NCBI GenBank assembly: GCA_951406725.2
Contig: OX597820.1
Location: 36,952,001-37,016,000, forward strand
Source of the DNA: Octopus vulgaris
Lineage: Eukaryota
Length of the DNA: 64,000 bases
Reading direction: 5' to 3'
The position numbers and the translations under genes are program-made. Below, in pieces: positions 11,066 through 58,989 of this stretch. The notes below the pieces were generated by a model, which was given only the letters and a program-made list of their open reading frames with translations, was not told the DNA's origin and did not search any database. Each line of letters begins with the position of its first letter. Within the stretch, counting starts at the first letter, position 1.

Positions 11066-11310
11066 ATAACAATTAAGTCCCAATTTTATATACGTGGTCT
11101 TCTAAAGTGGACAGTTAATTAATACGAACAGTGATTGCTGTAAATAGACAACTGAATTTCAACGATAAAGCTTAAAGAAGCTAACATCGTTATTCCAGTT
11201 GATTTTCTTTACATACCAATTGCAGACTACCAAAGTGTATATTGACACGATAAACAACACCAGCGAAGTCTATTTTGATTACCCTTAACAATGTCAGGGG
11301 AGTTAACTCT
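11066..11310 (-). promoter_or_regulatory. G1 putative promoter motif plus non-coding exon 1
   Basis: AGAGTTAACTCCCCTG at 11310-11295; donor AT|GTAAGT at 11065; region homologous to 23410-23711. Confidence 0.6.
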
Positions 11311-12042
11311 ACCATCATTAATAACTCTCACTATATAAACCTCTTCTATAAACAGTTGCTAACTTTAAGCCCAGAACTTATTAATGTGACTAAGCTATTT
11401 GGAGAATCTCTAGCAAATTAATAAGGTTTCAGTCAATCTGAAGTGGAATAATTAACTTTGCATCCTAATTCAAAAAGAAAAGTAATCATTACACCAACTA
11501 CTTTTGTAGAAACGGAACTAGAACTCTTTTATAGAAAAAGTAATTTGCATAAAATATTCAACACTATAATTAATTCTCTCTCTCACACACAGCAATGCCA
11601 CTGTTAATTAAAAGAAATAAATAATTAAGCTATGAGGAAAGAATCTAAAGATAACATAATGTCAAGTCATAATTCATATAATGCAATATATTCAATTTCA
11701 ATATATCAGGCGTTGCTTAATATGATTGATATGTGATTTTAATTATAGACAATTAATTATGAAAAAAACAAGGTATTTACGTAATCAGTGCTTTCAAACA
11801 GGTTTTCCTTCATGTGCTTGATGTGTTGAATAAGAATTATGTGTAATTTCGTTTACAGACATATCTTAATGTTCTCTTTAAAAAAATAATTCACTTGCAA
11901 ATCCTCTGATCGCAGAATAAGCCTCAATCTTCACTCAGGTTTTTCAAATAGTCTTTTCTAAAGGAGAACTAATTTAAACTAAACTAAATATGTCACTATA
12001 TTCTTTAAAATTGTATCAGCTACAGTACAGTTTATTTAACTT

Positions 12043-13206
12043 GGATCTTTTCGGTTTGAACGGCAGTTTTTAACATAATTTTTAGGTAACTAAAAAATTT
12101 TAAACTTCGTATACTGGTAGAATGTGTCAAAATAAAACATTTTTTTTCTCTTGGCTTTCTTGAGAAAATTGTAATTTGTTTGTTTAACGTAGTTTAGTTT
12201 TTCGAATTTTAACCAATGAATCGCCTCTAGTAAGCTAAAATCATTTGCTGCGTCTAAAACTGAGACAACATCCTGTCACTAACCCTAACCCTAAATTTTA
12301 GCCTTTCGTTTTTTTTTCTTAATTGTTACTCGTGTGTCTAAAATTATTCTTTTTGTTATTGTTTTGAGTTTTTGCTTTCGTTTTAGCCTTTCGTTATGTA
12401 TATGTACGGAAAGCGTGTGCATAAAATTATAGAATTATTTTGTTTGTTAATTGTTTAAATTATTTTCCATTGCTTTCGTTTTAGCCTTTCGTTCTTTTTT
12501 CTTAATTATCCTTAAATTAATTTAACAATTAAGAAAAAAAACCAAAGGCTAAAATTTAGGGTTAGAGTGAGGGTTAGGGTTAGTGACAGGATGTTGTCTC
12601 AGTTTTAGACGCAGCAAATGATTTTAGCTCAATTAGATGCAATTGATTGGTTAAAATTCGAAAAATTAAACTACGTTAAACAAACGAATTACAATTTTAT
12701 CAAGAAAGCCAAGAGAAAAAAATGTTTTATTTTGACACATTCTACCAGTATACGAAGTTTTAAAGTGTTTAGTTAACTAGAAATTGTGTTGACATGTGCC
12801 GTTCAAAAGGAAAAGATCCGAATGTTTATAAAACATCTTTTTCTCTTGGCTTTATTGAGAAAATTCTATAGTTTGTAAGATATTTTCTTCAACTTCATCT
12901 TAGTTAGGAGTGGGGGAAGGGTATCTTTTTTTCTTCACAAATGTAAATAAACCCAATCTGTTTCTTAAACGAGGGACACATTCATATGGCACAGAAGGTT
13001 GTTTATGTCAATGGACGTAATTAATTGGTTGAAATTGCCGAAATGCAAGAAATTAAAGACCAAATATCTTACAAACTATAGAATTTTCTCAATAAAGCCA
13101 AGAGAAAAAGATGTTTTATAAACACATTCTACAAGTATATGAAGATTAAAATTTTTTAGTTACCTAGAAATTATGTTAAAAACTGCCGTTCTAATCGAAA
13201 AGATCC
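12043..13206. mobile_element. Compound foldback MITE (TIR GGATCTTTTCGGTTTGAACGGCA) with internal telomere-like repeats
   Basis: Palindromic unit 12043-12819 with ~280-bp arms containing CCCTAA/TTAGGG, fused to a 5'-truncated unit 12820-13206; degenerate 8-bp TSD TTTAACTT/TTTAATTC. Confidence 0.85.
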
Positions 13207-13278
13207 TTTAATTCAATATATTTATGAATAAAAGAACTTTTTAGATGGTTAAAAGTTGACATTATCAAATTAATGATA

Positions 13279-13430
13279 GGTGCTGGCGTGGCTGTGTGGT
13301 AAGAAGCTTGCTTCCCAACCTCATGGATCTGGGTGGCACCTTGGGCAAAGTATTTTCTACTATAACCTCAGGCCAAACCAAACCTTGTGACTGGATTTCG
13401 TAGATGGAAACTGAAAGAAACCTGTTGTGT
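13279..13430 (+). mobile_element. tRNA-derived SINE 5' part
   Basis: GGCTGTGTGGTAAGAAGCTTGCTTCCCAAC...CACCTTGGGCAA, followed by (GT)n. Confidence 0.75.
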
Positions 13431-13581
13431 GTGTGTGTGTGTGTATGAATAAATGCTACAATCGGTCAAAACAACTTTATAATATTCCCATAATATCATA
13501 AATCTAACATAAATATATATATATATATATACGTAAACATTTACATATATATATATTTATCAGTACATATTTATATATATC

Positions 13582-13962
13582 CGGGCTTCTGTGCCGGTGG
13601 CACATAAAAAAGCACCATCCGAACGTGGCCGATGCCAGCGCCGCCTCGACTGGCTTCTGTGCCGGTGGCACATAAAAAGCACTATCCGAACGTGGCCGAT
13701 GCCAGCTCCGCCTTGGCTGGCTTCCGTGCCGGTGGCACGTTAAAAGAACCAACCGATCGTGGCCGATGTCAGACCCCCCTGGCACCTGTGCAGGTGGCAC
13801 GTAAAAAGCACCCACTACACTCGCGGAGTAGTTGGCGTTAGGAAGGGCATCCAGCTGTGGAAACACTGCCAGATCAGATTGGAGCCTGGTGCAGACCCCG
13901 GTCGAACCGTCCAACCCGTGCTAGCGCGGAAAACGGACGTTAAACGATGATGATGATGATGA
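13582..13962 (+). mobile_element. RTE 3'-UTR-derived element (OK-SINE-like) with ~64-bp internal tandem repeats
   Basis: GTGCCGGTGGCACATAAAAAGCAC units; tail CGGACGTTAAACGATGATGATG shared with the RTE end at 31790 and with 51130. Confidence 0.8.
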
Positions 13963-13992
13963 TATATATATATATATATAAGTATATACATA

Positions 13993-14855: not shown

Positions 14856-14867
14856 TATATATATGCA

Positions 14868-15200
14868 TAGTCTGTTTTCCATGCTGGCATGGGTTGGATG
14901 GTTTGACCGGAAACTGGCAAGTCATTAGGCTGCACCAGGCTCCACCTGATCTGGCAAGATTTCTACAGTTGGATGCCCTTCCTAATGCCAACCACTCCAA
15001 GAGTGTAGTGGGTGCTTTTTACGTACCACCGGCATGGGAACCAGTCAGGCGACACTGGCATTGGCTATGTTCGGACAGTGCTTTTTATGTGCAACTGACA
15101 CAGGGAGCCAGTCAGGCAGCACTGGCAACAAGCCATGCATGAATGGTACTTAATTGCATGCCACCAGCACAGAAGCCAGTCAGGCGGCACTGGCATCAGC
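14868..15200 (-). mobile_element. RTE 3'-tail/OK-like element
   Basis: Reverse complement of the 13582-13962 family. Confidence 0.75.
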
Positions 15201-15954: not shown

Positions 15955-15990
<36 letters not shown>

Positions 15991-19169: not shown

Positions 19170-19779
19170 TACAGTATAAAAAACATACTGTAGAACAAAG
19201 CATGTAAAATAACATTATCTGAATAAACTCATTACAATACTCGTTCAAAGGATTACAAAATAAAGAAGGAAGACTAGTCAGTATGAACTTTAGAAGTGAG
19301 CTGTGTTTATTTTATTGTTTATTAGAGTTGAAATCCTTCAAATTTTCTAAGTTCAAGGTAAACCAAAGTTCTACAACCCAAATTACCAAATGCCTGGTTA
19401 AACATTTCAGTCAGGTTGAAGAACATAGTAAACTGTTTGCAGTGCCATCTTTGCTTGTGTAGAAGAGTATACAGAGATAACGCTGCCTTTGGTTCATCAG
19501 TATATCTATTCACAGATAATTAGTCTTGATATGGTCTCGTATATACAATGTGCACAATCAATGCAAGATGACTTCAATTTATCAATAGTTTAATATGTAA
19601 TCTAGTATATATTTTAGACCTAATAAGTCAATCATGTTAGCTGCAATTTTGAAATTTTGAAGAAAATAATAGGCACATTTGTCTACATCAAATGAAACAA
19701 AAGAGATAAAGAGATTATAATGAAGTAAAGAGATACTGGTAGTATTTCTGACGACTGTAGTAGTTTTACAGCTTATTTC

Positions 19780-19945
19780 CAGTGTTTGTGACCAGCCAAA
19801 TATTTTTTATCAGGCAAGGTTTAAAACAGATTATATCTCAATGCTATGGTTACCTCAAAATGTGAGGATGTGTATGATGAAATGAAATTCGACCCTGACA
19901 GAATGCTTCACCACAAATTTCACAGTGATAAATTCTCTTCTGAAT
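19780..19945 (-). pseudogene. Decayed zinc-finger units downstream of G2
   Basis: Minus strand reads KRIYHCEICGEAF...HH.HPH followed by stop codons. Confidence 0.6.
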
Positions 19946-20384
19946 CACAATGATTAATATAGCTTCATATTTATCATCAGTTTATATAGAGTCAAATCTC
20001 ACTCTGGATATGAAAACGGTTTGTTACAGGTAGTTTTTCCTTTAGAAGGAAAATCAAATTCAACAATGCAAGTAAAGAGATTATTCATCACTTGAACATT
20101 GCTGCTGCATGCAGAGACAAGTTGTTCCTAAACTGCAGTACATATTACAGCATGATACACTGGGTTGAGAAGAATATAAACTGTTGACATCACAATCAGT
20201 TATTCCTACACAGCAGAACCTATTTCAGCTAGGTGTATTTAGTTGAGAAGAGAATACAAGCTGACATTGCCACTTGGTATGTGCTATGCTCTTCATTCAG
20301 CAATTCATACTTTACTCAGAGCTACAACTTCCGAGAAATTTGAATGTATTTGTTTGTGATTTGAAATTTCATTTCAGTTTATGG

Positions 20385-21236
20385 TTACTCATTCATGTGA
20401 ACACGCTTGTGGGAAGTTAAACTACCACTCTGAGTAAAAGTCTTATCACAAATATCACAATGGAAGGGTTTTTCACCAGTATGAACACGTATGTGATTAG
20501 TTAAGCTACAACTATGAGCAAAATCTTTACCACAGATATCACAGTGGTAAGGTTTTTCACCAGTATGAATACGTTTATGATCAAGCATACTACATTTGTG
20601 TAAAAATGCTCTACCACAGATATCACAATGGTAGGGTTTCTCACCACTATGAATACGCTTATGCTTATGCATAGTGCCTTTGCAGGAGAATGTTTTACCA
20701 CAGATATCACAACAGTATGGTCTTTCACCAGTATGCATACGTTCATGTATAAGCATACCATCTTTCTGTGAGAATGATTTACCACAGAACTCACAGTGGT
20801 ATGGTTTCTCATCTGTGTGAACACGTTTGTGAAGATTTAGCTGATAACTTATTGAAAATGCTTTACCACAGATATCACAGTGGAGTCGTTTCTCACCTGT
20901 GTGAACACTTTTATGGCTAATTAACTGTCCTCTCTCAGAGAATGCTTCACCACAGATATCACAGTGGTATGGTTTCTCACCTGTATGAATACGTTTGTGT
21001 ACAGACAAAAAGCCTTTAACCATAAACTTTTTACCACAAATATCACATCGATAACGCAGTGAACTTGTGTTAATAAATTTCTGCTCATTGATATTACTAT
21101 TATGTGTAAATGTTTTAGAAGACTTATCGGGTAGTTTTAATTTCTTTCCCATATTTGTCAGTCTTTTATGAGATACACGAGTATTCTTGGAGGGTTTTTC
21201 ACCCTCAACCTCACTCCCACACAGTTTATCTTCCAT
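20385..21236 (-). CDS. G2: C2H2 zinc-finger protein, 8 fingers, 283 aa; close paralog of G1
   Basis: TGEKP-linked C2H2 array; ATG (MEDKLC) at 21236; acceptor TTTCAG at 21518/21517. Confidence 0.93.
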   Translation of the reverse strand: MEDKLCGSEVEGEKPSKNTRVSHKRLTNMGKKLKLPDKSSKTFTHNSNINEQKFINTSSLRYRCDICGKKFMVKGFLSVHKRIHTGEKPYHCDICGEAFSERGQLISHKSVHTGEKRLHCDICGKAFSISYQLNLHKRVHTDEKPYHCEFCGKSFSQKDGMLIHERMHTGERPYCCDICGKTFSCKGTMHKHKRIHSGEKPYHCDICGRAFLHKCSMLDHKRIHTGEKPYHCDICGKDFAHSCSLTNHIRVHTGEKPFHCDICDKTFTQSGSLTSHKRVHMNE

Positions 21237-21689
21237 GATTTCTTCTTGCTGCAATATTTCAAAAATGAAGCAGATATTAGACACTACAGAAAAACAGTTG
21301 TAGTATAATGTCAAATCTTCTCTAATATGACTGCCATGACCCAGCCAGTATATTTCCAATCAACATAACAATTGTTAATTAAATCAAATCTTTTAGAGTA
21401 ATCCAATCACAATTAGATAAACAATGTCACAAGCTTTCTTGAGGATTATGTCATTCTGTAGTCTTCAAAATTTTGTATGTATGTAAATATATTTTCTCTC
21501 AATGTCACCAGAAAATCTGAAATTAAAAAAAAACAACATAATAGGTAAGCAATATGAACTGCCAAGACAGAACTTACTAACGAGAAAATATTTATTGGTA
21601 GACATTAAAAATTAGTCCATTACCCACAAGAATGTTAGTGCTGTATCTCTAATTTAAAACTGAACTATATTTTGATAAGCTTCAGCCTA

Positions 21690-23409: not shown

Positions 23410-23711
23410 ATGACAATGTAACCCCAATTTAAAATGTATGTGTAGTAAAGCAGTCAAGTGGTACTAAAATTCAATAAAGACATTGATTTATTAAAAACTT
23501 CTAATGCTCACGATAAACCATGACTTCCTTCAAATAAAAAAAAGCTTCAAAGTGCCAGTGTGTAATATAATTAATGGTATTTTTATAGTCCAATTTCCCT
23601 TTTATACCGTTTGAAGACTGCCAAACCCTATATTGGTGTTGTAAACAATAACATCAGTGGAGAAAAGAGTCTATTATGATAGCCTTAAACAATATCAAGG
23701 GAGTTAACTCT
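23410..23711 (-). promoter_or_regulatory. G2 putative promoter motif plus non-coding exon 1
   Basis: AGAGTTAACTCCCTTG at 23711-23696; donor AT|GTGAGT at 23409. Confidence 0.6.
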
Positions 23712-24146
23712 ACCATCATTAATAACTCAGTAAATTTCTAAACCTTTTCTATGAACAGTTGCTAGTATTAAGCTAGAAACATATTAAATGCTACGAAGAT
23801 ATTTGTAGCAAAGTATAAAGGCTTCAGTCAATATGAAGTGAAATAACTTAACTTCGCATCCTAATTCAAGAAGGAAAACAATAAGTCCCTCAGCCACATT
23901 AGTATAAACGGAACTAGAACTCTTTTATACAAAATGTATAAAATATCCACCAATATAATTAATTATCTCTCTCTCTCTCTCTCTTTCTGAAATTTTACTA
24001 TTAATTAAAGGAAGTAAATGATTAAAAGGTGAGGAAAGAGCTGAATGATAATGTAATGAATGTCAAGTCATAATTAAGTTGATAGAGTTGTCGCGAGGGA
24101 TGACTGATCTTTCATCATCTGAGGTGATGACTGGCTTAGTTGATGA

Positions 24147-24556
24147 GGATCTTTTCGGTTTGAACGGCAGTTTTTTCTAGTGGTGTCATATGAAATTGTC
24201 ACCCATAATTATGACCCTAGTATCGATCTATTGCATTTCAATCTGTTTTAGGGTTAGGGTGGGGGGAGGGTATCTTTTTTCTTCACAAATGTAAATAAAC
24301 CCAATCTGTTTCTTAAACGAGGGACATATTCATACGGCACAATGTTTTTCTTTTACCTCAATAGACGTCAGTGATTGGTTGAATTTGCAGAAATTGAAGA
24401 AAAAACAACAACAAATATCTTACAAGCTATAGAATTTTCTCAATAAAGCCAAGAGAATAAGATGTTTTATAAACACATTCTACCAGTATACGAAGTTTAA
24501 AATTTTTTAGTTACCCAGAAATTATGTTAAAAACTGCCATTCAAACCGAAAGATCC
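24147..24556. mobile_element. GGATC-TIR MITE with 8-bp TSD
   Basis: TIRs GGATCTTTTCGGTTTGAACGGCAG / CTGCCATTCAAACCGAAAGATCC; TSD GTTGATGA/GTGGATGA; internal TTAGGGTTAGGG. Confidence 0.9.
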
Positions 24557-26977: not shown

Positions 26978-27485
26978 CCAGCGATGTGCAACCAAAAGAA
27001 TACCCTCCATCAGGCATTTGCCATATTCTGAACGCCTTACTTCCTTGGGCATGGACATATTAAAACTCCGACGTCTGGCAGCTGACTTGGCAGACACCCA
27101 TAAATTTATCAACCATCTTACAAGCAATAACTCTGAGCACCTTTTCAAACTCCACCGGTCTAACACCCGTGGACATATTTACAAAGTCAGAAAACAGCAC
27201 AGCTCCCATGACTTTAGGAAACATTTTTTCACGCTGAGAATTGCTGAAGCATGGAACAAACTGCCGGCACCAGTTGTTAGTTGTCGGAGCATTGCATCCT
27301 TCAAAACTTCCATGCTTTCTGAGATTCGCCAACACTACACCTGATTTTCTCCCCTCCATACACACACAAGCATGTATCTGACTCATACATTGTTCGCTTT
27401 CCAGACATTTGTACATTACTGCATATACTCTATACGCACTTTCTGACAAGTTGTGGTGCACCTGAGCACTGTATACAATAATTTC
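26978..27485 (+). mobile_element. CR1/L2-group LINE 3' end
   Basis: QRCATKRIP...LPYSERL...LRRLAADL...TRGH...RKHFFTLRIAEAWNKLP; same family as 41345-42880. Confidence 0.85.
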
Positions 27486-27711
27486 AACTTGCACCACAAC
27501 TTGTCAGAAAGTGCGTATAGAGTATATGCAGTAATGTACAAATGTCTGGAAAGCGAACAATGTATGAGTCAGATACATGCTTGTGTGTGTATGGAGGGGA
27601 AAATCACGTGTTGGCGAATCTCAGAAAGCATGGAAGTTTTGAAGGATGCAATGCTCCGACAACTAACAACTGGTGCCGACAGTTTGTTCCATGCTTCAGC
27701 AATTCTCAGCG
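27232..27711. repeat. Near-perfect ~225-bp inverted repeat with 29-bp spacer
   Basis: 27232-27460 is the reverse complement of 27490-27711 with few differences. Confidence 0.95.
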
Positions 27712-27748
27712 CTATGAAAATATTTTTAAAATTCTATAAAGTGGTCGC

Positions 27749-28023
27749 AGAGTTACTTCCCCTGTTTGATGTTAGGTTCTCGCGTTTAAATGCTTTAGTT
27801 GTGGGTTTTTCTGCAGATGCGCTATTGAATTATATACACACTCTGTATGGTAATTAACAACACAAACATAGTAGTGTTAATAGAAAGAGTATTATTTATG
27901 AAAAAAAAATAATAATAACGGTTCATCGTAAACTTTCAGCTGAAGCTGTCAATGTAATTTTGGATTTTCAAGTCTCAGCATCTGAGAACATTTCCAATAT
28001 TTCGCATCTGAAATGCTTTTTAT
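27749..28023 (+). promoter_or_regulatory. G3 putative promoter motif plus non-coding exon 1
   Basis: AGAGTTACTTCCCCTG at 27749-27764; donor AT|GTAAGT at 28024. Confidence 0.55.
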
Positions 28024-35566: not shown

Positions 35567-37515
35567 TGAATGTTAGAATCATGTTGATATCTGTTAGGCA
35601 GCTGAGGAAGGGAATCCAGATTTAGTTAAGTTTATTCCGTGGTTGGTTATGTTTCTAAGGTTATCTGATTGATTGAGCACTATATATCTGTAGGTATGGT
35701 TGTTTATGTTTATTGGTTTTAATGTTGGAGTCTTTTTTGTGGTGTTTATCTGTAAACTTTTTTACACATACTTCAATTAGACATTTTATTCTAGAATGGC
35801 TAGGGGTTCTTGATTAGTTTATTTCATACCATTCTGGATTGTACTGGTTGAGGTTAATCTATTTTTTAATTTGATGAAGATAGTTTTTTGGTGAGAAGTA
35901 TCAATTATCTTGTTATTTTAACAATATAGGATAAATATATTGCATATACAGAAAGAGAGAGAGAGAGAGACCGACAGACAGACAGACAAACATAACGCAA
36001 GGCATAAGGGATTTTAAAATTTAGGCGGATACTCTGTAAGCACTGCATGGTAATCCAAACTTAGCCATCTAGATTGACTGGTGGGAAACATTAGAATCCA
36101 TAAGGACCATATAATTACAATTGCACTCCTGTTAGATTAGTAAATCCAAAGTTTGCTTTGATGAATTTCATATAAGATTCCAGAGTAAATTAAAAAAAAC
36201 AAAGAATAATGGAGAGTTACACATTTTTAATTGATAATTTATAACATATCAATTGCCGATAAATCCATATAATATTATAATTGATCTAAATTGAATTTAT
36301 TAACATGCAAAATCATCACACTAAATCATTACACAATAGTAGCATATTAGAAATGTACATTGGCAATTTATGTTATAAGTTATCAATTAAAAGTGTTTAA
36401 CTTTCCATTCTTCTTTGTGTTTTATATAAATACACACACACCATGCTATTTCTAATGACAATATTCTCCACTCAAAGTATCAGAAACTTCCATTTATGTT
36501 CTGCTTTCTTCATCACTAAGAAGTTCCTCTCTGTCCGCCGGAGAAGATGACAAATTTGGAAGACTTAATATTTTTAATGTAATGTAGGAACTGATGCTCC
36601 TCTGTAGAGAGGCATCAGTTCCCATATGTCATATGTGCACACTGATATTACATATCCACCGGAGCATGCTTGCTTCATTTCTTTCAAGCTTTCACATAGA
36701 GAACAGTAATTTTAAATAAGATGTTGTTTCAAGGCAGAGAAATTACTTTATTCTTGCTACAGAAGCTTCTTATGCCAATTGCAACCAGTCATCAAAAAAC
36801 CAAGCCAAATGCATAACAAAGATGGACAATTTTGTCTGCTCTTGTGTGTACCAGACCCTTTAAACTCTTTGCTAGCATGGAAAGATGTAAAATGAGGATG
36901 ATGATGTAGTGGTTGTTTGCTTGTTGGTCTATTCAAGACTATACTTTTTAATTATTTTTTCCTGTTATTTAAATATCTTTAATATCTTTTACTGTCTCTA
37001 TATTTCAGAGTATCTAGTGACATTGATGTAAGAATTTATTGACAGAATACAGCAAGTAATTTGTGAAGAATCTTAGAAGACTAAAGAATGGTGTTGTGAA
37101 GATGAGATGTGACTATATATAACCTTGATCAAATTGCTGTGAAGTTAATATAAGGAGTTTATACCTGAGACTTTTTACACAAAGCTACAAAACTCCATTA
37201 ATTTATGTGTAATGCTTTTGATGTATGGATATATATTTGAAGCTTATATGGATCAGCTGTTATTTATTTCAAGTTATGCAATTGCGCCTTTGATATCTGT
37301 CAAAATAGCCTTTTTAATGTAACTTAGCTTTAAGAAACTACCATGAAAGAGTTATTTTTGTTTTCCTATACAAACTTTGTTAAATGTTTCTATTTCATTT
37401 AAGAAGAAATAGCTTCAATATTTCACTGGGAAATTCTATGGAATTTGTTTCTTATTTTTTTTAGACATTGCAAAATAAGAATTATCATTGTATTTTTAGT
37501 ACATTAGAACAAATA

Positions 37516-38712
37516 ATGGAAGAGAGATTGTGTGAGAGTCAGGACTATGGAGAGACACCGCTTGAAACTAGTGATTTATCTCATCAGATACAAGTAGATA
37601 CAGAAAAGTCATATACCTGTAACACCTTTGGAGAGACTTTCATCAAAAGTAGTGGCATCATTGAACATAAATTACATCACACAATTTCAAAACTCTACCT
37701 TTGTGATGTTTGTGGAAAAAGATTCACTACAAACAGTTCTTTATCTTTACATAAACGTACTCATACAGGTGAGAAACCATACAATTGTAATATTTGTGGT
37801 AAAACATTCTCTTATAGTGGTATACTAACATGCCATAAACGAATTCATACAGGTGAGAAACCATACCATTGTGACAAATGTGGAAAAACATTTGCTCGAA
37901 ATGATCATTTAACCATTCACAAACGTGTTCATGCTGATGAGAAACCATACCATTGTGATATCTGTGGAAAAACATTTTCTCATGATAGTCACTTAACTAT
38001 TCACAAGCATGCACACACTAGTGAAAAACCATACAATTGTGACATCTGTGGTAAAACATTTCCTTACAGGGGTAAATTGACAAGCCACAAACGTATCCAT
38101 AGCGGTGAGAAACCATACCATTGTGATACTTGTGGTAAAACATTTTCGCACAATGGTGATTTGACTGTTCACAAACGAGTTCACACAGGTGAAAAACCAT
38201 ACCATTGTGATGTCTGTGATGAAACGTTTTATCGGAGTAGTAAATTAACTGTTCACAAACGTGTTCACACAGGAGATAAACCATATCACTGTGATATCTG
38301 TGGTAAAACATTCTCTGACAATAGAGATTTAACTCGTCATATCCGTATTCACACAGGGGAAAAACCATACCACTGTGATATTTGTGGTAAAACATTCTCT
38401 CAGAATGGTAGCTTAAATATTCATCAACGTGTTCACACAGGTGAGAAACCATACCACTGTGATATCTGTGATAAAACATTCTCCCACAATGGTAGTTTAA
38501 CTGTTCACAAACGAATCCACACAGGAGAGAAACCATATAGCTGTTATATCTGCAGTAAAACATTCTCTGATAATCGAGATTTAACTCGTCATATACGCAT
38601 TCACACAGGTGAAAAACCATACAACTGTAATATTTGTGGTAAAACATTCTCTCAGAATAGTAATTTAACTATTCACAAACGTGCTTGTGCAAATGACAAA
38701 TCACATCACTGA
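37516..38712 (+). CDS. G3: C2H2 zinc-finger protein, 12 fingers (last is C2HC), 398 aa
   Basis: TGEKP-linked array; ATG (MEERLC) at 37516; acceptor TTTCAG at 37007/37008. Confidence 0.93.
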   Translation: MEERLCESQDYGETPLETSDLSHQIQVDTEKSYTCNTFGETFIKSSGIIEHKLHHTISKLYLCDVCGKRFTTNSSLSLHKRTHTGEKPYNCNICGKTFSYSGILTCHKRIHTGEKPYHCDKCGKTFARNDHLTIHKRVHADEKPYHCDICGKTFSHDSHLTIHKHAHTSEKPYNCDICGKTFPYRGKLTSHKRIHSGEKPYHCDTCGKTFSHNGDLTVHKRVHTGEKPYHCDVCDETFYRSSKLTVHKRVHTGDKPYHCDICGKTFSDNRDLTRHIRIHTGEKPYHCDICGKTFSQNGSLNIHQRVHTGEKPYHCDICDKTFSHNGSLTVHKRIHTGEKPYSCYICSKTFSDNRDLTRHIRIHTGEKPYNCNICGKTFSQNSNLTIHKRACANDKSHH

Positions 38713-47249: not shown

Positions 47250-48165
47250 AGTCATCTTTGTGGTAGGTAATCCCCATGAAAATCATGATATTCTCATTCG
47301 TGCTTGAGATAACAACCTTAAGAGTGTTTCAGATAATCATCCCTCTTATGATGCACTCCAGTATCCTCTTATGTTGTGGAATGGACAAGATGGGTATCAT
47401 ATTCCACAGATTGAACCTGCAACAGAAGAGCCAATTACAAACAAAAAGGTGTCATCAAATGACTTCTATTCTATTTCAGCAATACCTGGTTGATATGTAT
47501 GCTAAAGTTGAGAGTCAGCATCACCTCTACATTCATAACAATTTAAAAAAAGTTAAGGGCTAAAAATTATGTTCATCTCCAAGACGTTCTGAGGACAGAT
47601 GGTGATATTCAAAACATGGGGCAACTTATAATCCTCCCATCATCATTCACAGGTGGCCCTCAATATATGCATGAATGAACACAAGATGCTATGACATATG
47701 TCAAGTCATATGGAAAACCAGATTTTACTACTTTCACCTGCAATCATAAATGGGAGGAAATAAAATTTAACAATCGTCCAGTGTTGCATTTTCTCGTATT
47801 GCAGCTACCTTCCTCAATAGGGGTAGAATTGCTCATTCCACGTTCAAGCTCCCTCTAAACCTTGTAATGAAAGAATCTCAAATCTGGAATATTTCCCAAA
47901 ACTCTGCAATGGCAACAGTTCTCCAACAAACTTGCCTCATTGTTTGGGATGAGTGCACTATGTCATATTATGGAGCTCTAGAGGTACTTCACCCTACTCT
48001 CCAAGACATAAAAAATAGCAAACTCATGGGAGGAGTAACAGTTCTTCTTGCAGATTTTTGTCAAACATTGCCAGTTATCCCCAAAGGATCAAAAGCTGAT
48101 GAGGTCAATGTATGCTTACAAAAATCATACCTCTGGAGACTTGTTGATCAAAAAAATAACGAACA
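47250..48165 (+). mobile_element. Internally deleted Helitron RepHel relic
   Basis: HPSYDALQYPL, QQYLVDMYAKVE, ILPSSFTGGP.YM, TFTCN.KW (Rep), then GRIAHSTFKLPL, IVWDECTM, DF.QTLPVIP (helicase). Confidence 0.85.
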
Positions 48166-48169
48166 CAAA

Positions 48170-48830
48170 CACCGTACTTTGGTCACCACCTGGTGCCATA
48201 CTATCTTTAGTACCAACTGACATCCTAAATATCAACTTTCACCTCTGAAACACGGACCATACTTTCAAACCCACCACTGTAAACACAAGCATAACGTGTA
48301 TTTATACGTAAACAAAATAAGAACTACTGCCTAAATTTGCCCTTCCTAAAAAAACTCACCCTTAGAACGAATTTACCTACCTATTTACCACTGGACAAAA
48401 TAACATGAATCTTGGAAGGCAACACTTGAAGTCTATGACTTATTTCCCTTTCCTATACCTAATCCATTTTACTCCTCTCACATGCTAAGTCTTGCTCCTA
48501 TTCAATAAGAAAAATATACCGTACCTATTGGTAACTGACTTTTGTATGTATCGGCTCTCCTAAACATTTGGACCCTCTGATGATGCTTAGAGGCACACTC
48601 ACCATCCAAACTCTATCTACCCATCCCTACAGAACACTGAAGTGATGGAGCTAACATGCAGGATATCGTGGTCTCTTGGCAGAAACAGCCATAAGGAACT
48701 GATCTTTTAATCTTTTACCCTTTTATGTATTACTAGTATATATTTCTGTAGCACAGTCCTTGCATGTGTATGTATTCTTATAACACTCCCTTTTGTTTTG
48801 GAATAAAAAGCCATAATAGAATGTCTACTG
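48170..48830 (+). mobile_element. Penelope-like 3' fragment
   Basis: CCCTCTGATGATGC...GCAGAAACAGC signature resembling the CUGAUGA...GAAA hammerhead core found at PLE ends. Confidence 0.4.
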
Positions 48831-49705: not shown

Positions 49706-49708
49706 ACT

Positions 49709-49782
<74 letters not shown>
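49706..49782. repeat. (CA)n(TA)n microsatellite
   Basis: Seen directly. Confidence 0.95.
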
Positions 49783-49787
<5 letters not shown>

Positions 49788-50519
49788 AGCACTTCAGTTA
49801 CAGGATTATCAAATCAATTCAACATATCAGACTAAAAAAAGGTTCACTCTTACTGAAGCACATGTAGATTCTTTGGATGGTACCTATGAATGAAAATTCT
49901 AATATTAATTTGTAGAATAAAAGTATTTAAGATGAATTATGAAGAGCTCTAAGTAGTAACCCTGTCAGTAAAATGAGTTTATAATCAGATTACAGGTTAA
50001 AATTATTTTCTAATAAATCAGTAGCAAATTTAACAGACAATTACATTTGAATGTCAATAATTTAAAACAGAATTTTAAATATTTATATAATTCAGATTTT
50101 AGAACAAAGTTTACACAGACAAGTTGCAGTTTCTGTCTATCTGAAAAAGTAAAATTAACTAACGCAAGGAAATAAAATGTAAACATTACATTGTGAAAGA
50201 TCTGTGCTTGGATATTTTCAAAATTCCTTACTACACAAATATGTGAGAGGATGAAAAAAGACAGTTGTACAGAGTCAAGAGTGCTGGATATTACAGCCAT
50301 GTATTTTATAATTTCAAATCAAATAGTACAAATATGACAAACACAATAAAACAGTATAGATACTATCTTCATTCATTTTTCCATAACACAATAAAACAGT
50401 ATAAATACTATCTTCATTCATTTTCCCAAAATTTACTATAAATTCAAATGTAATTACATATCACAGATGTATCCAATAGTGGCTTGATGTAATATTGTGA
50501 AATATTTCTCAATTTTAAT

Positions 50520-50690
50520 AGGCACAAGCATAGATGTATGATCAATAAGTTTGCTTCCCAACCATATGGCTTCTTGTTCAGACCCACAGTGCTGCACCTT
50601 AGGCAAGTGTCTTCTCTTTTAACCCTGGGCCAAACAAAACCTTGTGAGGAGATCTGGTAGATGTAAAGTGAAAAATACCATTATATGTAT
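50520..50690 (+). mobile_element. tRNA-derived SINE 5' part
   Basis: Homologous to 29325-29490. Confidence 0.7.
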
Positions 50691-50744
50691 ATGTATATAT
50701 ATAAATTTGGAAATATGCTGTGTGTGAGAATACCCGGCAGGACA

Positions 50745-51157
50745 AGTGAGACCATAACCCGTGGCCTTTACCTGTGATGTAGCCAGTCCACTTATGCATA
50801 CCTTTCTTTCTTTGGACACAAAACTTTGCTTGTGAAGACCTGTTGAGGCAAGTGAAATTGAAATCGATCAAAAATCAATGGAAATTGTAGTTGTGATACC
50901 AGTGCTGGTGGCATGTAAAAAGCACCATCCGAACGTGGCTGTTGCCAGCTCTGCCTCAACTGACTTCCATGCTGATGGCACGTAAAAAGCACCCACTACA
51001 CTCACGGAGTGGTTGGCGTTAGGAAGAGCATCCAGCTGTAGAAACACTGCCAGATCAGACTGGAGCCTGGTGCAACCTCCTGGCTTCCTAGACCCCGGTC
51101 GAACCGTCCATCCCATGCTAGCATGGAAAACAGACGTTAAACGACGATGATGATGAT
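50745..51157 (+). mobile_element. RTE-tail/OK-like element
   Basis: Homologous to 13700-13962; (GAT)n tail. Confidence 0.8.
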
Positions 51158-51581
51158 ATATATGAGTGTGTGTGTGTCTGTATTTATTTACATCTGAACT
51201 TGCTTATTTGAAAGTCACATCATATCTGTGGTGTTCTGAAGACATTTCTCCTGTCAACAGATTGCCCAATCACTTCTGCCAAAGTTATGTGGAATAAGAG
51301 ATCCATTACTTGAAAAACAAGTAAAGATAAGCATCAGAATGAGTATCTAGCCATAAAAGAATGCCTCAGTAACATGTTTGTCTAACTCATGCTAGTACGT
51401 AAAAAGGGACATAAAACAGACAAATAAAATTGTTGTTTAAATGTATTGCTGACAAATTACATCAGTATTTTGAGATTATATTTTGCCACAAATCTCAAAC
51501 TTATTTGGTTTATTATTTTTGAACATGCATAGAACAAGTTGTATGAGCATTCTGAAACAGAGACACATCTATCCACAGAAG

Positions 51582-53279
51582 TTACAGTGGTATGGTTTCT
51601 TTCTTGCATGGGGATATTTGTGAAGTCAATTCACTATTACGAGAAAATTTATTACCAGATATCACAGTATTATAGTCTCTTGTGTGAACACGCATGTGAG
51701 TAGTCACATTTCCATTACGAGAGAATGCTTTACCACAGATATCACAATGATATGGTTTCTCTCCCGAGTGAATACGTTTATGACTAGTCATATTTCCAAC
51801 AGAGGAGAATTTTTTGCCACAGATATCACAATGGTATGGTTTCTCACCTGTGTGAATACGTATGTGCCTAGTCAAATGAAAATTACGGGAAAACTTTTTA
51901 CCACAGATATCACAATTATATGGTTTCTCACCTGTATGAATACGTTTGTGAAGAGTTAGTTTAGAAGTAGAAAAAAATGTCTTACCACAGATATCACAAG
52001 GATAGAGTTTCTCACCTGTGTGAGTAAGCATATGAGAAGTTAAACTAGGCTTTTGGGAGTATGCTTTACCACAAATATCACAGTGGTATGGTTTTTCCCC
52101 TGTATGACAACGTTTATGAATAGTCAATTCACCGTTACGTGAGAATGTTGCACCACAGATATCACAATGGTATGGTTTCTCACCTGTATGTATACGTTTG
52201 TGAACTGTCAAAGCACTACTACATGTGAAAGTTTTACCACAGATATCACAATGGTAGGGTTTTTCACCTGTGTGAGTACGTTTGTGAACAGACAAGGTAT
52301 TACTACGAGGAAATGTTTTCCCACAAATATCACAGTGGTATGGTTTCTCACCTGTGTGACTACGTTTGTGAATAGTCAATTCACCATTACGAGAGAATGT
52401 TTTACCACAGATATCACAGTGAAAGGGTTTCTCACCTGTGTGAGTACGTTTATGGTTAACTAAATGTACATGCATATAAAATTTGTTACCACAGATATCA
52501 CAATGGTATGGTTTTTCACCTGTATGCTTACGCTTATGAACATTCACTTCATAATTACGAGAGAATGTTTTACCACAAATATCACAGTGGTATGGTTCCT
52601 CACCAGTATGAGTACGTTTGTGAACAGTTAAAATACCATTACGAGAGAATGTTTTACCACAGATATCACAATGGTATGGTTTCTCACCTGTGTGAATACG
52701 TTTGTGACTAATCACATTTCCATTGTATGTGAATGATTTACCACAGATATCACAATGGTATGGTTTCTCACCTGTGTGAATACGTTTGTGACTAGTGAAA
52801 TGCTCATTCCAAGAAAAATTTTTACCACAGACATTACAGTAGTATGGTTTCTCCCCTGTGTGAGTACGCTTATGACTAGTTAAATAATCATTCCGAGAGA
52901 ATGTTTTACCACAGATATCACAGTGGTATGGTTTCTCACCTGTATGTGTACGTTTGTGTCTCATCAAAATTCTACTGTTAGAAAATGTTTTACAACATAT
53001 ATCACATTGGTATAGTCTTTTAACTGTGTGAGTACATTTGTGTGATAACAATGAACCCTTTGTAGTGAACCCTTTGCCACAAACTTTACAATAGTAAACA
53101 TTTGGACTTGTGCAAAGTGACTTGTGTTTACTAATATATTTATGCCTTATAAATGTTTTTTTCTTGATGTCACAGTGTTCAGATTTCTTCTTTAAATCTT
53201 CCTTAGTTTTGTGAGAAAAGTCATTAGTCTCACAATGTGTGTCATTATAAACTTGATTTTCACACAGTTTCTCCTCCAT
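51582..53279 (-). CDS. G4: C2H2 zinc-finger protein, 17 fingers plus a decayed tail, 565 aa
   Basis: TGEKP-linked array; ATG (MEEKLC) at 53279; acceptor TTTCAG at 53731/53730. Confidence 0.94.
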   Translation of the reverse strand: MEEKLCENQVYNDTHCETNDFSHKTKEDLKKKSEHCDIKKKTFIRHKYISKHKSLCTSPNVYYCKVCGKGFTTKGSLLSHKCTHTVKRLYQCDICCKTFSNSRILMRHKRTHTGEKPYHCDICGKTFSRNDYLTSHKRTHTGEKPYYCNVCGKNFSWNEHFTSHKRIHTGEKPYHCDICGKSFTYNGNVISHKRIHTGEKPYHCDICGKTFSRNGILTVHKRTHTGEEPYHCDICGKTFSRNYEVNVHKRKHTGEKPYHCDICGNKFYMHVHLVNHKRTHTGEKPFHCDICGKTFSRNGELTIHKRSHTGEKPYHCDICGKTFPRSNTLSVHKRTHTGEKPYHCDICGKTFTCSSALTVHKRIHTGEKPYHCDICGATFSRNGELTIHKRCHTGEKPYHCDICGKAYSQKPSLTSHMLTHTGEKLYPCDICGKTFFSTSKLTLHKRIHTGEKPYNCDICGKKFSRNFHLTRHIRIHTGEKPYHCDICGKKFSSVGNMTSHKRIHSGEKPYHCDICGKAFSRNGNVTTHMRVHTRDYNTVISGNKFSRNSELTSQISPCKKETIPL

Positions 53280-54559
53280 GTTGTTTGTTAAAAAAAAGAA
53301 CAACTATAATTCCTTCCTTTATTGTTATTTGTGAAGTCAAATTGGTTGTTCATAAGGGGTATGCTAAACTACTGAGCACAAGGTCATGAAATAAAAACAT
53401 ACTGTTAATGGTAGTCTATTTAATCTGACAATTAGAATATTTAAAATGTGTCTCAGCTATTAATAAGCTTCTTTTAAATATATTGGAGAACAGTCATTCC
53501 TCACAAGACATTACTCATTAGCCATGTCAAATCTTCTATTAAATTTCTTGAGTTCGATCATCATATAAAATCAGCCATGGAATTTATTTCAATGGACCTC
53601 AGAAAATTGCTGTAAAGTTAGATAACACTGTTTTATTTTCTATAAAACCATTCTTAAAACTTTCATATTCTTCAAAGATTTGTTGATGTGTCTTGGGTGA
53701 AAAATTGTCACCTCAAGTTACCAGATAACCTGAAATAAAGAGATAATAACTCATATCAGACAATTAAATATCATCACAAATGATATTAGAGAAAAATATT
53801 GAGAGAAAACATGATGTGAGTTTTGATTTGTGGAACAACACTAGGTTATCATGTATCTATTCGAGAAAATTATCAAAGTTTCATGGTGTCATTGGAAAAT
53901 TGGAGTGAAGCATGAAGGTTGCATGGATGAATGATACCTGTGTACAGAAGAGTTATAAGGAAAGAGTAATATCATCTACATACGAATGTGTGTTACTAGA
54001 GCTGACAGCAAGTAAGTAGTTAAAGTACAAAAACAACGTATTGGAGAAAGTTCTGCCAACATAGATATCAATAATGCTGTCATCTATTAAGTTTCTGATC
54101 CAAGGAGAATATTGAAGCTGAGTTTCAAGATTTAGTCAATATTTATTTTAAGTTTCTGGATTTAGTCATGCACTATTTTTCCATGACCCTCTTTCATTTG
54201 ACTTAAATATTTTAAATTTTTGTAGCATTTCTGATCTTTCTGATGTCTAAGGATGGACATTAATGTGTGTGTGGCGTTTTTCAAATGTAATTCTGGATAA
54301 TTAAAAGGGCAAATTTACATTATCTTACTAATTTTGCCCCAGCAAAATTAGTAAGATAATTAGCCAAAAAAAGAACAGTGATAATTTTCTGAAATAGTGT
54401 TCTGAATATATTATTGTTTTTAATACATTTAGAGAAGGTCATTTGCTTCGCTGATATAGGAATTGTAGGGAGGTGAACATTTATAAAATATATTATTTCT
54501 CAAGGTCAGAAGCACATTAAATATTCCTCATTGCCCTCTTTGTTAAAAGTTTATCTTTT

Positions 54560-54767
54560 ATCCTTTACTTGTTTCAGTCAATTAAACTGCAGCCATGCTG
54601 GCAGTCTTGAAGAATTTTTAATCGAATGAATCGACCCGAGTATTTTTTAGCTTGGTATTTATTCTATCGGTCTTTTGCTGAACCGCTAAGTTACGAGGGC
54701 GTAAACAAACCGACACTGGTTGTCAGTGATGAGGGACAAACACAAAGACATAAACACATATATACAA

Positions 54768-54799
<32 letters not shown>

Positions 54800-54930
54800 G
54801 ATAGGTTTCTTTCAGTTTCCGTCTATCAAATCCACTCACAAAACTTTGGTCAGCCGAGGCGATAGTAGAAAACCCTTGCCCAAGGTACCATGCAGTGGGA
54901 CTGAACCCTGAACCATGTAGTTGGGAAGTA
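54560..54930 (-). mobile_element. tRNA-derived octopus SINE
   Basis: Reverse complement of 29325-29702. Confidence 0.8.
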
Positions 54931-55133
54931 AACTGATCAAACGCAAGGCTTGCACCTCGTTGAAGTGCAAGAGACTTTCAAAGTGAACCAACTCGGAACA
55001 GTCTGATAAAAGTGTCAATTAATGATAACGATATTTGCCGGAGGGTGACCCTGGCTAAGAATAACGATATTAATCTACATAGGTCTGTAGATCTACGACA
55101 TTATATCAGCAATAGATAGATAGATAAGGAAAG

Positions 55134-55227
55134 GGCGGAGGTAAACAATACGCACACCACCCGACTTCGGCGTAACCCTAAACCTAACCGCCGAAAACGG
55201 GAGGTGTGTGTATTCTTTACCTTCACC
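55134..55227. mobile_element. 94-bp mini-MITE with perfect 9-bp TSD and telomere-like loop
   Basis: TAAGGAAAG on both sides; 39-bp imperfect TIRs GG...CC; loop TAACCCTAAACCTAAC. Confidence 0.85.
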
Positions 55228-55600
55228 TAAGGAAAGATATGACATTCATTTTTTCGCAGCGTCGCATGTTTTATGTGATTCATTCCGACGATCATTTAAT
55301 CAGTTGTATTTAAAATGGCTACCAATTGACATTTATAAAAACAAATTATTATTCGGCTAAATAACACTTCTGGAGTAAAAGAATACAGTCCAATAAAGAT
55401 TCACTTGAATAAATGTTTACTGTAACACTTCATTGGACTTGAATAAATTCCTTACTCGACTCATAACTTCGTGTGATTTTAAAGCACTTTTGCAAGATGC
55501 CTTCTTTTATGTCCATCGGTTTCTTCACTTTATCTTACTGAACTCATCAAAACAAACAAATGACATGTGGAAGAAAGACAGGTATATCAATAATACTTAC

Positions 55601-55856
55601 ATATTAATATAGACCTATGTAACAATATTAGAACGTAAGTTGTAATGTGACAACGACAGCTTCCAAGCTTTTGCAGCAAACATTGATTTCCATTTTCAAA
55701 GCAACAAAGAATCTGTACTGTTCCTCTACACAGTTATTTAGCAATTGATCCAACTGAATGGCAGATATAACCAAGAACTGTTAGAGAAAAATAACCAGCT
55801 AAGAAGATTAAGACGAGAAAATTTGGGAACAATAAACCGACAGGGGAAATAACTCT
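55601..55856 (-). promoter_or_regulatory. G4 putative promoter motif plus non-coding exon 1
   Basis: AGAGTTATTTCCCCTG at 55856-55841; donor AT|GTAAGT at 55600. Confidence 0.6.
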
Positions 55857-56599
55857 AATTGTATTTTATTAATAAGCTACTGTTCTAAAAGAATTCTACG
55901 TGACAATTCTTCATTAAAACTACTAGTTTCACATTAATTATTGTCACTATAATCATCAAATATATATATTTTTCTATTTTAGTATAAGTTTGTGTGGCTG
56001 CCAGTGAAGAAACCATGTTTAGGCTGATGGGAATGTTTTTTATCCAACGAAGTCATAGTACAAATACTAGTTTCGAATTTTTAAAAAATCTAAAATACGA
56101 GAATATTTCAAGTATTAAATTTTTCTATTATGAAATAAAACAATAGAAAATATTCTTTATATCTTTGTATAAAGATGTAAAACACAAGAGTATTTCAGTC
56201 ATCTTTCTATTTTATTTTTATGAAGTAAATTTACTCAATGCTTTTCAATAGCCGGAGGTTAAATAACTTGAAGATAATAACTACAAATAAATTGGAAAAT
56301 CTCACGATCAAGTTGCTGATTAAGCTATGATCTGCGATCTACAAAAAACAAAATAATCATATATTCATTTCTCTATGTTAGCTTTCAGCCACCAAGAATT
56401 AAAACTGAACTATTAATTGCCAGTAAGGAGACTATCTCGTTTTGCGACCATAATATACTATCAAGCCTATTGAGCGTTTATAAATGAATAGTGTGCCTTT
56501 ATTATTATGAATTGATTTTTATTTTGCAGCGTTATTGTTCCAGTGTACTCAATTACATAAATATTCCACATTAAAATACACATCGAAAACCAAAGATAA

Positions 56600-56930
56600 C
56601 ACAATCATGAGCGAAAAAAAAAAGAAAGAAGAAAAACATCAATTCAACACTAAGCGTCTCAGTCGATCGCGTGCAATAAGGCTCAACGAAACCTATTGAA
56701 GCAAGCCAACACGCTCGCAGCATTACCGCAGATGATGGCGAGGTTACGGCGCTGTAACAGCCAGGCACCCACACTGGCATTATCTGACACCTCAGTAAGG
56801 CGAGCTGCTAACGATGACAGGAACTTCGCTGTCAGCTGCACAGCTCTTCCAAATATCTCAAAAGTCACAGGCCGGGAGAAATGGTTCACCGACAAGTTCC
56901 GATACTTAGGGATTTTGTTCCGATGTCCTC
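56600..56930 (-). mobile_element. CRE-clade (RLE) non-LTR retrotransposon 3' relic
   Basis: RNKIPKYRNL...PVTFEIFG...FLSSLAARL...GAWLLQRRNLAIICGNAASVL matches the recalled CRE C-terminus. Confidence 0.7.
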
Positions 56931-56959
56931 CGACCCATTCGAGTGACTACTTATACTGG

Positions 56960-57185
56960 CCCGACCCATAAGGTAGGTGCCTCATCTGAGACGCCAATCA
57001 GTGACTCCTTTGCCACCCTAACATCCTGGATGCTGTAGTAAACGGGTGAGTCTTGCTTCTGTAGCCGAACGGAACAAAATCCTAAAATATCGGGAATTGT
57101 CAGTAAGCCCTTTCTCTACTTTGTAACCTTTGAAGGAGCTGGGCCGCTAACAAGAATTCTTGTCATCGTTTTGTGTTGGCAGTCC
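56960..57185 (+). mobile_element. Second CRE relic, opposite orientation
   Basis: GRCLI*DA...DSFA...AERNKILKYREL; 57070-57170 is a diverged reverse complement of 56810-56922. Confidence 0.65.
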
Positions 57186-57587
57186 ATTGTTTCCATTTTA
57201 AGTTTATCTCTACTGGGTTTGTACAGAGTTCAGAGCCAGCCCTGAAAGTTATGACATTTCTATACGAATACGACTATGTAAACAATGAGATCGAAGACAG
57301 AAAACATAGGTAAAGCGTGTATATGCATATTTAAAAAGTTATTGTTTTTTCTTCAGCACCACATCCAAGTCATCTACAAACGCTTTGGTTAAATATCCAT
57401 TAAGTTTATGTGTGTAACGCTATTGGATAGACCAATTTACATATTCAACACATTCCTTGTAACTGAAACTTAAATATTAATTCCTAACAAGGAGGTAGTA
57501 TTTCGTTTTGCAACCTTAAAAACTAATGTGTGTGCGTGTGAAAGAAATGTCAGCTTTTTTTTCTATTTTAAATAAATTATATTATTG

Positions 57588-57990
57588 GGATCTTTTCGGT
57601 TTGAACGGCAGTTTTTAACATAATTTCTAGGTAACTAAAAAATTTTAAACTTCGTATACTGGTAGAATGTGTTTATAAAATATCTTTTTCTCTTGGCTTT
57701 ATTGAGAAAATTCTATAGTTTGTAAGATATTTGGTTTTTAATTTCTTGCATTTCGGCAATTTCAACCAATCAATGACAATCTATTGAGGTGAAAACATTC
57801 TGTGCCGTATGAATATGTCCCTCGTTTAAGAAACAGATTGGGTTTATTTACATTTGTGAAGAAAAAAAGATACCCTTCCCCTAACCCTAAAATAGATTGA
57901 AATGCAATAGATCGATACTAGGGTCATAATTATGGGTGACAATTTCATATGACACCGCTAGAAAAACTGCCGTTCAAACCAAAAAGATCT
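57588..57990. mobile_element. GGATC-TIR MITE with perfect 8-bp TSD
   Basis: TATTATTG on both sides; reverse-orientation copy of 24147-24556; internal CCCTAACCCTAA. Confidence 0.92.
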
Positions 57991-58730
57991 TATTATTGTC
58001 CTCAGACAGAGAGAGAAATCCATTTCTCTACTGTAAGCTTTCATATATTCTTGTTTACTTTTCGAAATGACATCAGTTTGCAATTACTTTTTAGTGTATT
58101 TGTTTGTTTTTGTCTTTTTTCAACAGAAAAAAATGTTTTGTTTTCAATAATGTAACCCGTAATGATGTTTAATTTCAAGTACTTGTTGTTCGTTTCACTC
58201 CTGCTTGATGTCCATGTCTATTTTTGTAGATTCTCTGTTTCAGTTTTTCCATTTTCAATTGCTCACTTAGATCCGTACTCCTAATTTTTTTTTTAATTAG
58301 CTAACCAGTGTCAAATATATAACACGTTACTGACATTTACCAACTCATTATTTTAACCATGAGAAATATTATTTTCTATTATTTAATCTTTTAGCGTTAA
58401 AAATATCAAATAATTGAAATCATAAAAAGTAGAGGTATTTTTGTAATTTGCTCCATAAAAATTATTTCAGCAACATTACCTTACAAAAAATTAAAATTTC
58501 CATTCTTTTAAAATGTTTTAAACAAAACATAGTATTTATAAAGCGAATAAATATTCGAAACTTAGGCTATGAAAACGAAACTATCTGCCAGTCTTCCGCC
58601 AATCACCAAAATCACCAAAAGTAAATATTAGACGAAGTATATTCATCATGTCGAAGATGATAATGAAGTGTGGAAAATCATAAGGCAACTTATAATAATC
58701 AAGTACACAGCTTTTAGACTCCTTGACAAT

Positions 58731-58989
58731 AGAGATACTTCTCTTGACTCTTAAATTTTCACAAATTCTGTTCACATCTATAGCCGTCATCTGTACTTAA
58801 CTATCATTTAGACGATGAATTTGAATATAGTTGATTGGTAATGAACTCTGTAAGACATACAGAATTCTTGATTAGTGAACTTAAGAATAGAAATTAACGT
58901 TTATCGTAAAAGGCTGAAGTTCTCTTGAAGCTATCATTATCCACTCTTACTTGAACAAAGGCAACATATTACACATTGTGACTACGTAT
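58731..58989 (+). promoter_or_regulatory. G5 putative promoter motif plus non-coding exon 1
   Basis: AGAGATACTTCTCTTG at 58731-58746 (weakest match); donor AT|GTAAGT at 58990. Confidence 0.45.

Follow-up and report, generated by a model that had tools for sequence, protein, structure and literature searches.

Sites of ZNF143, a general factor, have been found enriched at tandem KRAB-ZNF promoters (114 targets) and also embedded in the transposon MLT1J (PMC3627581). In zebrafish, the FiNZ-ZNF genes form an expanded C2H2 family whose first exons can be aligned and which has common promoter classes (PMC10547256), and motifs of conserved position occur in the paralogous myticin promoters of the mollusc Mytilus (PMC7356231). 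Molluscan cis-elements had not been comprehensively studied as of 2020 (PMC7356231), and in the available text of a recent survey of cephalopod C2H2 expansions the words "promoter" and "motif" do not occur (PMC12513265). In a stretch of 64,000 nt from Octopus vulgaris (assembly GCA_951406725.2, contig OX597820.1, positions 36,952,001 to 37,016,000, forward strand; hereafter the window), five C2H2 zinc-finger genes (G1 to G5) are each preceded by a 16-bp motif, which is bipartite, with two arms around a 3-base spacer: AGAGTTA-N3-CCCYTG. This motif is real, promoter-associated and probably functional, and we read it, with a probability of roughly 0.55, as a promoter-proximal site for a putative molluscan factor that has been kept by selection in duplicated promoters.

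Like the ZNF143 SBS2/THAP11 site ACTACANNTCCCA (PMC3627581), the octopus motif is long, probably promoter-proximal and situated at zinc-finger-gene promoters, and the initial annotation of the window had drawn an analogy to that element of many vertebrate, often bidirectional, promoters. The sequences differ, the octopus word fitting only 5/11 defined positions of that core on either strand and its 16-mer consensus 6/18 of the SBS1 part 3' of TTCCCA, and the preferred positions differ too (about -70 for ZNF143, about -20 to +140 of the contig ends described below for octopus). Nor does the layout correspond: bidirectional promoters are spaced under 1 kb, and the divergent motif copies, one per gene, lie about 4.0 kb (G2/G3) and about 2.9 kb (G4/G5) apart. 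The comparison with ZNF143 holds good solely as a functional analogy. In the FiNZ-ZNF genes exon 1 holds the translation start and a TATA box tells the promoter classes apart (PMC10547256), whereas the octopus exon 1 is non-coding; the myticin motifs are other sequences (4 of 10 motifs compared) and have been reported as not common to other genes (PMC7356231). A description of the octopus motif has not been found in literature and supplement text, although logos in figures are not searchable and an earlier, unnamed de novo motif is quite possible. To our knowledge, none of the RFX, Myb, EBF, NR5A, ETS and SNAPc sites fits both arms. No such word was found in the available passages and supplements of PMC9023564, PMC7854359 and PMC9977687. 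The copies in the window are as follows.

11295..11310 (-): motif copy of G1, AGAGTTA-ACT-CCCCTG
23696..23711 (-): motif copy of G2, AGAGTTA-ACT-CCCTTG
27749..27764 (+): motif copy of G3, AGAGTTA-CTT-CCCCTG, with LINE-derived (long interspersed nuclear element) fold-back DNA ending 21 nt upstream
55841..55856 (-): motif copy of G4, AGAGTTA-TTT-CCCCTG, with probable-RNA contigs ending 4 and 8 nt past it
58731..58746 (+): motif copy of G5, decayed, with two changes in the fixed arms, inside probable-RNA contigs
590..605 (-): a sixth, weak match with one mismatch, probably chance or a dead copy

All five 16-mers reported by the initial annotation have been recovered exactly at their coordinates and strands and are sense-oriented to their genes. 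Four copies match the frame with 0 mismatches, and only columns 8 and 9 (spacer) and 14 (C/T) vary among G1 to G4. When the earlier degenerate pattern (in IUPAC letters) is allowed up to 1 mismatch, 6 matches are obtained against 0.04 expected, a pattern that had been fitted to these same sites; with leave-one-out position weight matrices, the left-out sites rank 3rd to 6th among 127,970 positions. An exhaustive search for the best shared 16-mer in the 590 nt before four donors, from which G2 has been omitted as the sister of G1, returns this motif with a score of 42/48, which none of 150 control sets reaches (null mean 36.1, maximum 41). Beyond the five zinc-finger sites no further full copy of the word was found within the window. 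The match at 590-605, which the initial annotation had missed, was examined as a candidate promoter for an undetected gene and dismissed: it is without a same-strand donor and without an alignable flank, and its observed/expected CpG ratio (CpG o/e) is 0.00.

The genes follow a common plan: a non-coding exon 1 is separated by one intron (1.3-9.0 kb) from an exon 2 that holds the whole open reading frame (ORF), in which a conserved first block is followed by a leader of 240-510 nt before the ATG. A donor AT|GT(A/G)AGT follows each motif, as claimed before, at +245, +302, +275, +256 and +259 for G1 to G5; the distance had been called fixed, and while a donor is indeed present at all five genes, the spacing spreads over 57 nt. 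The window contains 13 such words, and each gene's is the sole same-strand one nearby upstream of its coding exon, with the exception of G4, whose intron has been taken from RNA contigs. Exon 1 of G1 to G3 is listed with provisional 5' ends.

11066..11294 (-): predicted non-coding exon 1 of G1, donor 11065, intron 1255 nt
23410..23695 (-): predicted non-coding exon 1 of G2, donor 23409, intron 1893 nt
27765..28023 (+): predicted non-coding exon 1 of G3, donor 28024, intron 8985 nt
55601..55837 (-): contig-covered part of G4 exon 1, spliced to 53729, the junction bridged by records 13 (X15) and 16 (X16)
58590..58989 (+): contig-covered part of G5 exon 1, spliced to 63101, bridged by record 12 (X15), with record 5 (X14) stopping at the donor
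8374..9810 (-): G1 exon 2, predicted start 9810, ATG 9570, 399-aa C2H2 ORF with 12 fingers by pattern
20388..21516 (-): G2 exon 2, predicted start 21516, ATG 21236, 283-aa ORF with 8 fingers
37009..38709 (+): G3 exon 2, predicted start 37009, ATG 37516, 398-aa ORF with 11 fingers
51585..53729 (-): G4 exon 2, start 53729 from RNA contigs, ATG 53279, 565-aa ORF with 17 fingers
63101..64000 (+): G5 exon 2, start 63101 from an RNA contig, ATG 63571, ORF continuing past the window end

The identification as octopus C2H2 genes is supported by the N-terminal leader, which matches proteins of Octopus sinensis and O. bimaculoides from residue 1; these relatives came from a profile search, in which the 5 matches looked up comprised 2 from Octopus, 1 from a marsupial and 2 without a species. 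Two word-based protein searches yielded no octopus relatives (one gave 2 matches, the other was vertebrate-dominated), and in Pfam only zinc-binding families were found above the curated cut-off for the five ORFs, with small exceptions among weak hits. For G4 and G5, contigs from 4 of 24 listed runs have been placed on 50500-64000; that these runs are RNA is a guess, as none is recorded as such. The contigs splice at the predicted G4 and G5 donors, and therefore exon 1 exists there, bearing out both the splicing and the non-coding first exon that had been proposed. Contigs bridge the G4 intron in 2 of the 4 runs (two studies) and the G5 intron in 1 of the 4, with one further contig stopping exactly at the donor, and both introns are GT..AG. 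An ATG formed across the splice junction from the conserved AT|GT has been rejected: such an ATG is not conserved, because exon 2 has a G in its first place only at G4. All five paralogues retain, where exon 2 begins, a block of about 20 nt (9810, 21516 and 53729 (-); 37009 and 63101 (+)); it has no common reading frame and is possibly a splicing or untranslated-region (UTR) element.

Regarding the surroundings of the motif, the CpG o/e over 600 nt from each copy amounts to 1.13, 0.49, 0.75, 0.75 and 0.69 (G1 to G5) against a window median of 0.30; all five values fall in the window's 68th-99th percentile, a promoter-like retention of CpG. Of the G4 contigs, two that come from different studies stop at motif +19 and +23 and another stops at +83; the remaining run has too little of exon 1 for its end to be placed. 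The ends 4-8 nt past the motif give a weak hint of a start site, and the low cover upstream of G4 in these runs is given no weight. The X15 contigs begin at a pyrimidine-A step at both G4 (55833) and G5 (58590, in CCAGTC), with 3-4 unaligned letters, which is suggestive of true 5' ends and to which we attach little weight. The near-consensus copy of G4 thus sits just before contig ends, and the decayed copy of G5 is read through. As to the start-proximal position proposed by the initial annotation, G4 contig ends lie near the motif; one fixed relation to the start is not supported, since the G5 contigs read through. At 58586-58604 (+), the 5' end of one G5 contig falls in the Inr-like (initiator-like) CCAGTC; CTTCCG and a CCAAT word come next, and this segment may serve as a replacement promoter.

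Orientation and spacing of the motif have been inherited by duplication, because the genes are paralogues built alike from two exons, and they need no separate explanation; the question is why the word has outlasted its flanks. Exon-1 interiors align between G1 and G2 (z 9.6), between G4 and G5 (z 8.8) and weakly between G3 and G5 (z 2.9, which 2/200 shuffles reach), the DNA upstream of the motif aligns for G4-G5 (z 4.0), and no alignment was found between the exon-1 interiors of G1/G2 and those of G3-G5. The surrounding DNA had been described as unalignable except for G1/G2, which has to be corrected for G4-G5 and, weakly, G3-G5, while the exon-2 start block links all five genes. A residual exon-1 block of about 60 nt is common to G3, G4 and G5 (about 27915-27970, 55650-55710 and 58860-58940), with leave-one-out E values of 0.06 (G3), 2.3 (G4) and 0.025 (G5). 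The motif copies of G1, G3 and G4 have 14-15 of 16 bases in common, compared with a third-position identity of about 0.6-0.7. As to the purifying selection first suggested, the motif outlasts its flanks between deep paralogue lineages; the excess over third positions is modest, and for G4-G5 there is none.

The word has also been sought outside octopus, by an exact scan of metagenome contigs in which 117 loci are listed from one eighth of the collection; a scan for the motif plus donor gave 0 matches in these contigs. Three assemblies stand out among the 117 matches listed: Ga0307507 with 11, Ga0224511 with 9 and OREC01 with 6. The 11 loci of Ga0307507, 10 of which are visibly one dispersed repeat, have been set aside as uninformative. 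Those of Ga0224511 represent 7 unrelated contexts against roughly 0.2-1.6 expected, an expectation that rests on estimated assembly sizes. The loci of Ga0224511 and OREC01 are mostly non-coding. One Ga0224511 ORF has a single match, a Ruditapes philippinarum protein at 53% identity, so that the Ga0224511 DNA is likely bivalve. With the seeds masked, the flanks of Ga0224511 contain 6 more copies in 5 of the 9 loci (two of them in homologous flanks), compared with a mean of 0.13 and a maximum of 1 for shuffled words. At one locus (L076, 73-138), three copies lie within about 60 nt beside GATTGG and CACGTGAC; the adjoining CCAAT- and E-box-like words give the appearance of a promoter-like cluster in likely bivalve DNA. 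Among the remaining 91 metagenome loci and 49 viral loci, extra copies are at background, and the viral matches (43 of the 49 inside ORFs, no extra copies) have been read as chance.

In the Pacific oyster literature, the two arms are found around a 3-base spacer in the 161-bp CL8 repeat of Crassostrea gigas, whose unit holds AGAGTTA-TGG-CCCTTG (PMC7492417, supplement 2). This spacer is TGG, the setting is a tandem repeat and not a promoter, and the words are absent from the available main text of that paper. Two TGG-spacer 12-mers occur 200 and 216 times in the supplement, the TGG form having been chosen for the search as one known from bivalve repeats, and the octopus-spacer 12-mers have 0 occurrences in its oyster arrays as far as available. 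The 12-base core is also present in an oyster expressed-sequence-tag primer whose annotation is UTR (PMC4169597). From the over-representation in a bivalve-like assembly and the presence in an oyster repeat, the word therefore looks mollusc-wide and not zinc-finger-specific; it is probably a mollusc-wide signal, with a mixed bivalve setting of clusters, inverted pairs and repeats.

To explain these observations as a selected factor site, we propose that a sequence-specific protein would bind both arms, immediately upstream of the start, and help to open or position the promoter. The ancestral zinc-finger gene would have had one such site just upstream of its start, and tandem and inverted duplication would have carried the promoter along with exon 1 and the coding exon, all in a single unit, giving the common orientation and spacing. 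Selection would then have kept the two arms as spacer and flanks drifted, and at G5, where the site has decayed, initiation has likely moved upstream to the Inr-like site near 58590. Several observations weigh against this interpretation. The motif excess over third positions is modest (binomial p 0.003-0.07 per pair, with pairs that are not independent and a best window chosen post hoc), the G4-G5 motif identity of 12/16 is at background level, and other non-coding islands (the donor, the exon-2 start) persist about equally well. In 3 of the 4 runs the G5 contigs start upstream of the motif, at -141, -122 and -95 (the fourth piece is internal), and since they read through it, the motif is not upstream of every transcript. 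The contigs, whose RNA nature is guessed, fix neither start nor strand, and the RNA comparison covers G4 and G5, exon 1 of G1-G3 being predicted from sequence and homology. Beside the estimated sizes behind the metagenome expectations, the flanks of OREC01 hold 0 extra copies in 12.3 kb, and the bivalve settings differ, several lying in repeat families or inverted pairs and one in coding sequence, most with low CpG o/e.

The same modest excess, the background identity of G4-G5 and the homology of the entire gene plan would also be expected if the word were functionless leftover homology, the part of an inherited first exon that has survived best. We regard this as an unlikely explanation, for the word survives across lineages with unalignable flanks, its substitutions are concentrated in the spacer, and the consensus is the very word enriched in bivalve-like DNA.

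The position of the motif raises the question of a core-promoter (initiator-type) element for the basal machinery, with transcription starting within the word or at its end. The Initiator can also be written YYANWYY, and such a match lies at motif +4 in G3 and G4, inside the pyrimidine-rich copies and near the 5' end. AT-rich, TATA-like words precede the motif by 13-18 nt in G1, G2 and G4, in G3 such a word lies at -14, and the G4 contig ends at +19 and +23 are compatible with a normal 5' loss. At G3, moreover, the DNA upstream of -22 is LINE-derived:

27219..27727 (no strand): fold-back of LINE-derived DNA, 91% inverted, filling the G3 upstream region up to -22 from the motif

This fold-back (a LINE 3' piece) is homologous to the reverse-transcriptase-bearing element at about 41340-42900, and as it ends 21 nt before the motif, the native upstream promoter of G3 has been lost or displaced; despite this, G3 keeps an intact ORF and a high CpG level downstream. 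On the other side, no Inr match is present at that place in G1, G2 and G5, sixteen bases in two fixed arms exceed the length of an Initiator, the consensus of which (BBCA+1BW; PMC5287114) is far shorter, and the bivalve clusters and inverted pairs are typical of factor sites or repeat ends. An initiator-type element is on these grounds rather improbable.

A further possibility is that a transposon-borne repeat remnant has been captured as the ancestral promoter and that the bivalve spread reflects mobile elements and not a host factor. The CL8 unit of the oyster holds the frame and CL8-type arrays have been treated as Helentron-carried (PMC7492417), and at five metagenome loci (L032, L055, L117, L051, L061), which belong to two small repeat families, the word is arranged as a palindrome or an inverted pair. 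In octopus, however, the picture is different: the 64 kb of repeat-rich DNA hold no further full copy, no clear inverted partner was found within 60 nt at four of the sites (G1 has one 3-mismatch match), no tandem repeat was found at the motif sites, and the Helentron/HINE terminal structure (subterminal inverted repeats (subTIR) with an adjacent inverted repeat, microsatellite and 3' palindrome) is not seen there. The metagenome loci have no similarity to the window beyond the word save two short weak matches, and the exact octopus-type 12-mers are not among the available oyster arrays. We therefore consider such an origin quite doubtful as an account by itself; it is compatible with the selected factor site that we favour.

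An element specific to the zinc-finger family and co-regulating the cephalopod C2H2 expansion, as the initial annotation had proposed, is very unlikely: within the window the full word is found at the five zinc-finger promoters only, but the window is without another intact gene for comparison, the same word or frame occurs in bivalve DNA away from zinc-finger genes, and cephalopod C2H2 paralogues fall into different co-expression modules (PMC12513265, in part), which argues against tight co-regulation.

Taking our preferred reading further, AGAGTTA-N3-CCCYTG might be an ancient molluscan factor site that predates the cephalopod-bivalve split and is used by transposon-borne repeats as well as by octopus zinc-finger promoters, a speculative proposal to which we give tentative and limited credence. 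If true, it would constitute a convergent repeat of the vertebrate ZNF143 case, with its MLT1J elements and KRAB-ZNF promoters, and the 16 bases with exon 1 would form a portable mini-promoter keeping new zinc-finger copies expressed, as is suggested by G3, LINE-derived upstream of -22 and yet intact in its ORF. Common promoter motifs among tandem paralogues are expected, and the interest lies in the possible reach of the word across molluscs. As few cis-elements have been described in molluscs, the 16-bp site may serve as a bait for pulling down its factor, as a marker for overlooked non-coding first exons and as a test of how promoters remain functional across hundreds of duplicated zinc-finger genes.

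Several further features of the window have been observed. Copies of a repeat of about 400 nt lie upstream of G1, G2 and G5 (about 12000-13200, 24100-24550 and 57585-57990, respectively) and are abundant in the RNA contigs, and a 150-nt duplicate is located downstream of G1 and G2 (7500-7649 / 19170-19319). Relative to the window, three runs have 16 nt inserted in the G5 leader (63203-63209) and lack 10 nt downstream of the G4 ORF (51382), which are alleles or assembly differences. In an Rfam scan of the window, no match reached the gathering score. LINE-like elements are represented by broken reverse-transcriptase ORFs at 2774-3280 (-) and 41398-42899 (-); also present are single finger-like remnants at 19861-19946 (-) and 30046-30088 (+), and a PIF1-like helicase fragment, probably a Helitron remnant, at 47771-48217 (+).

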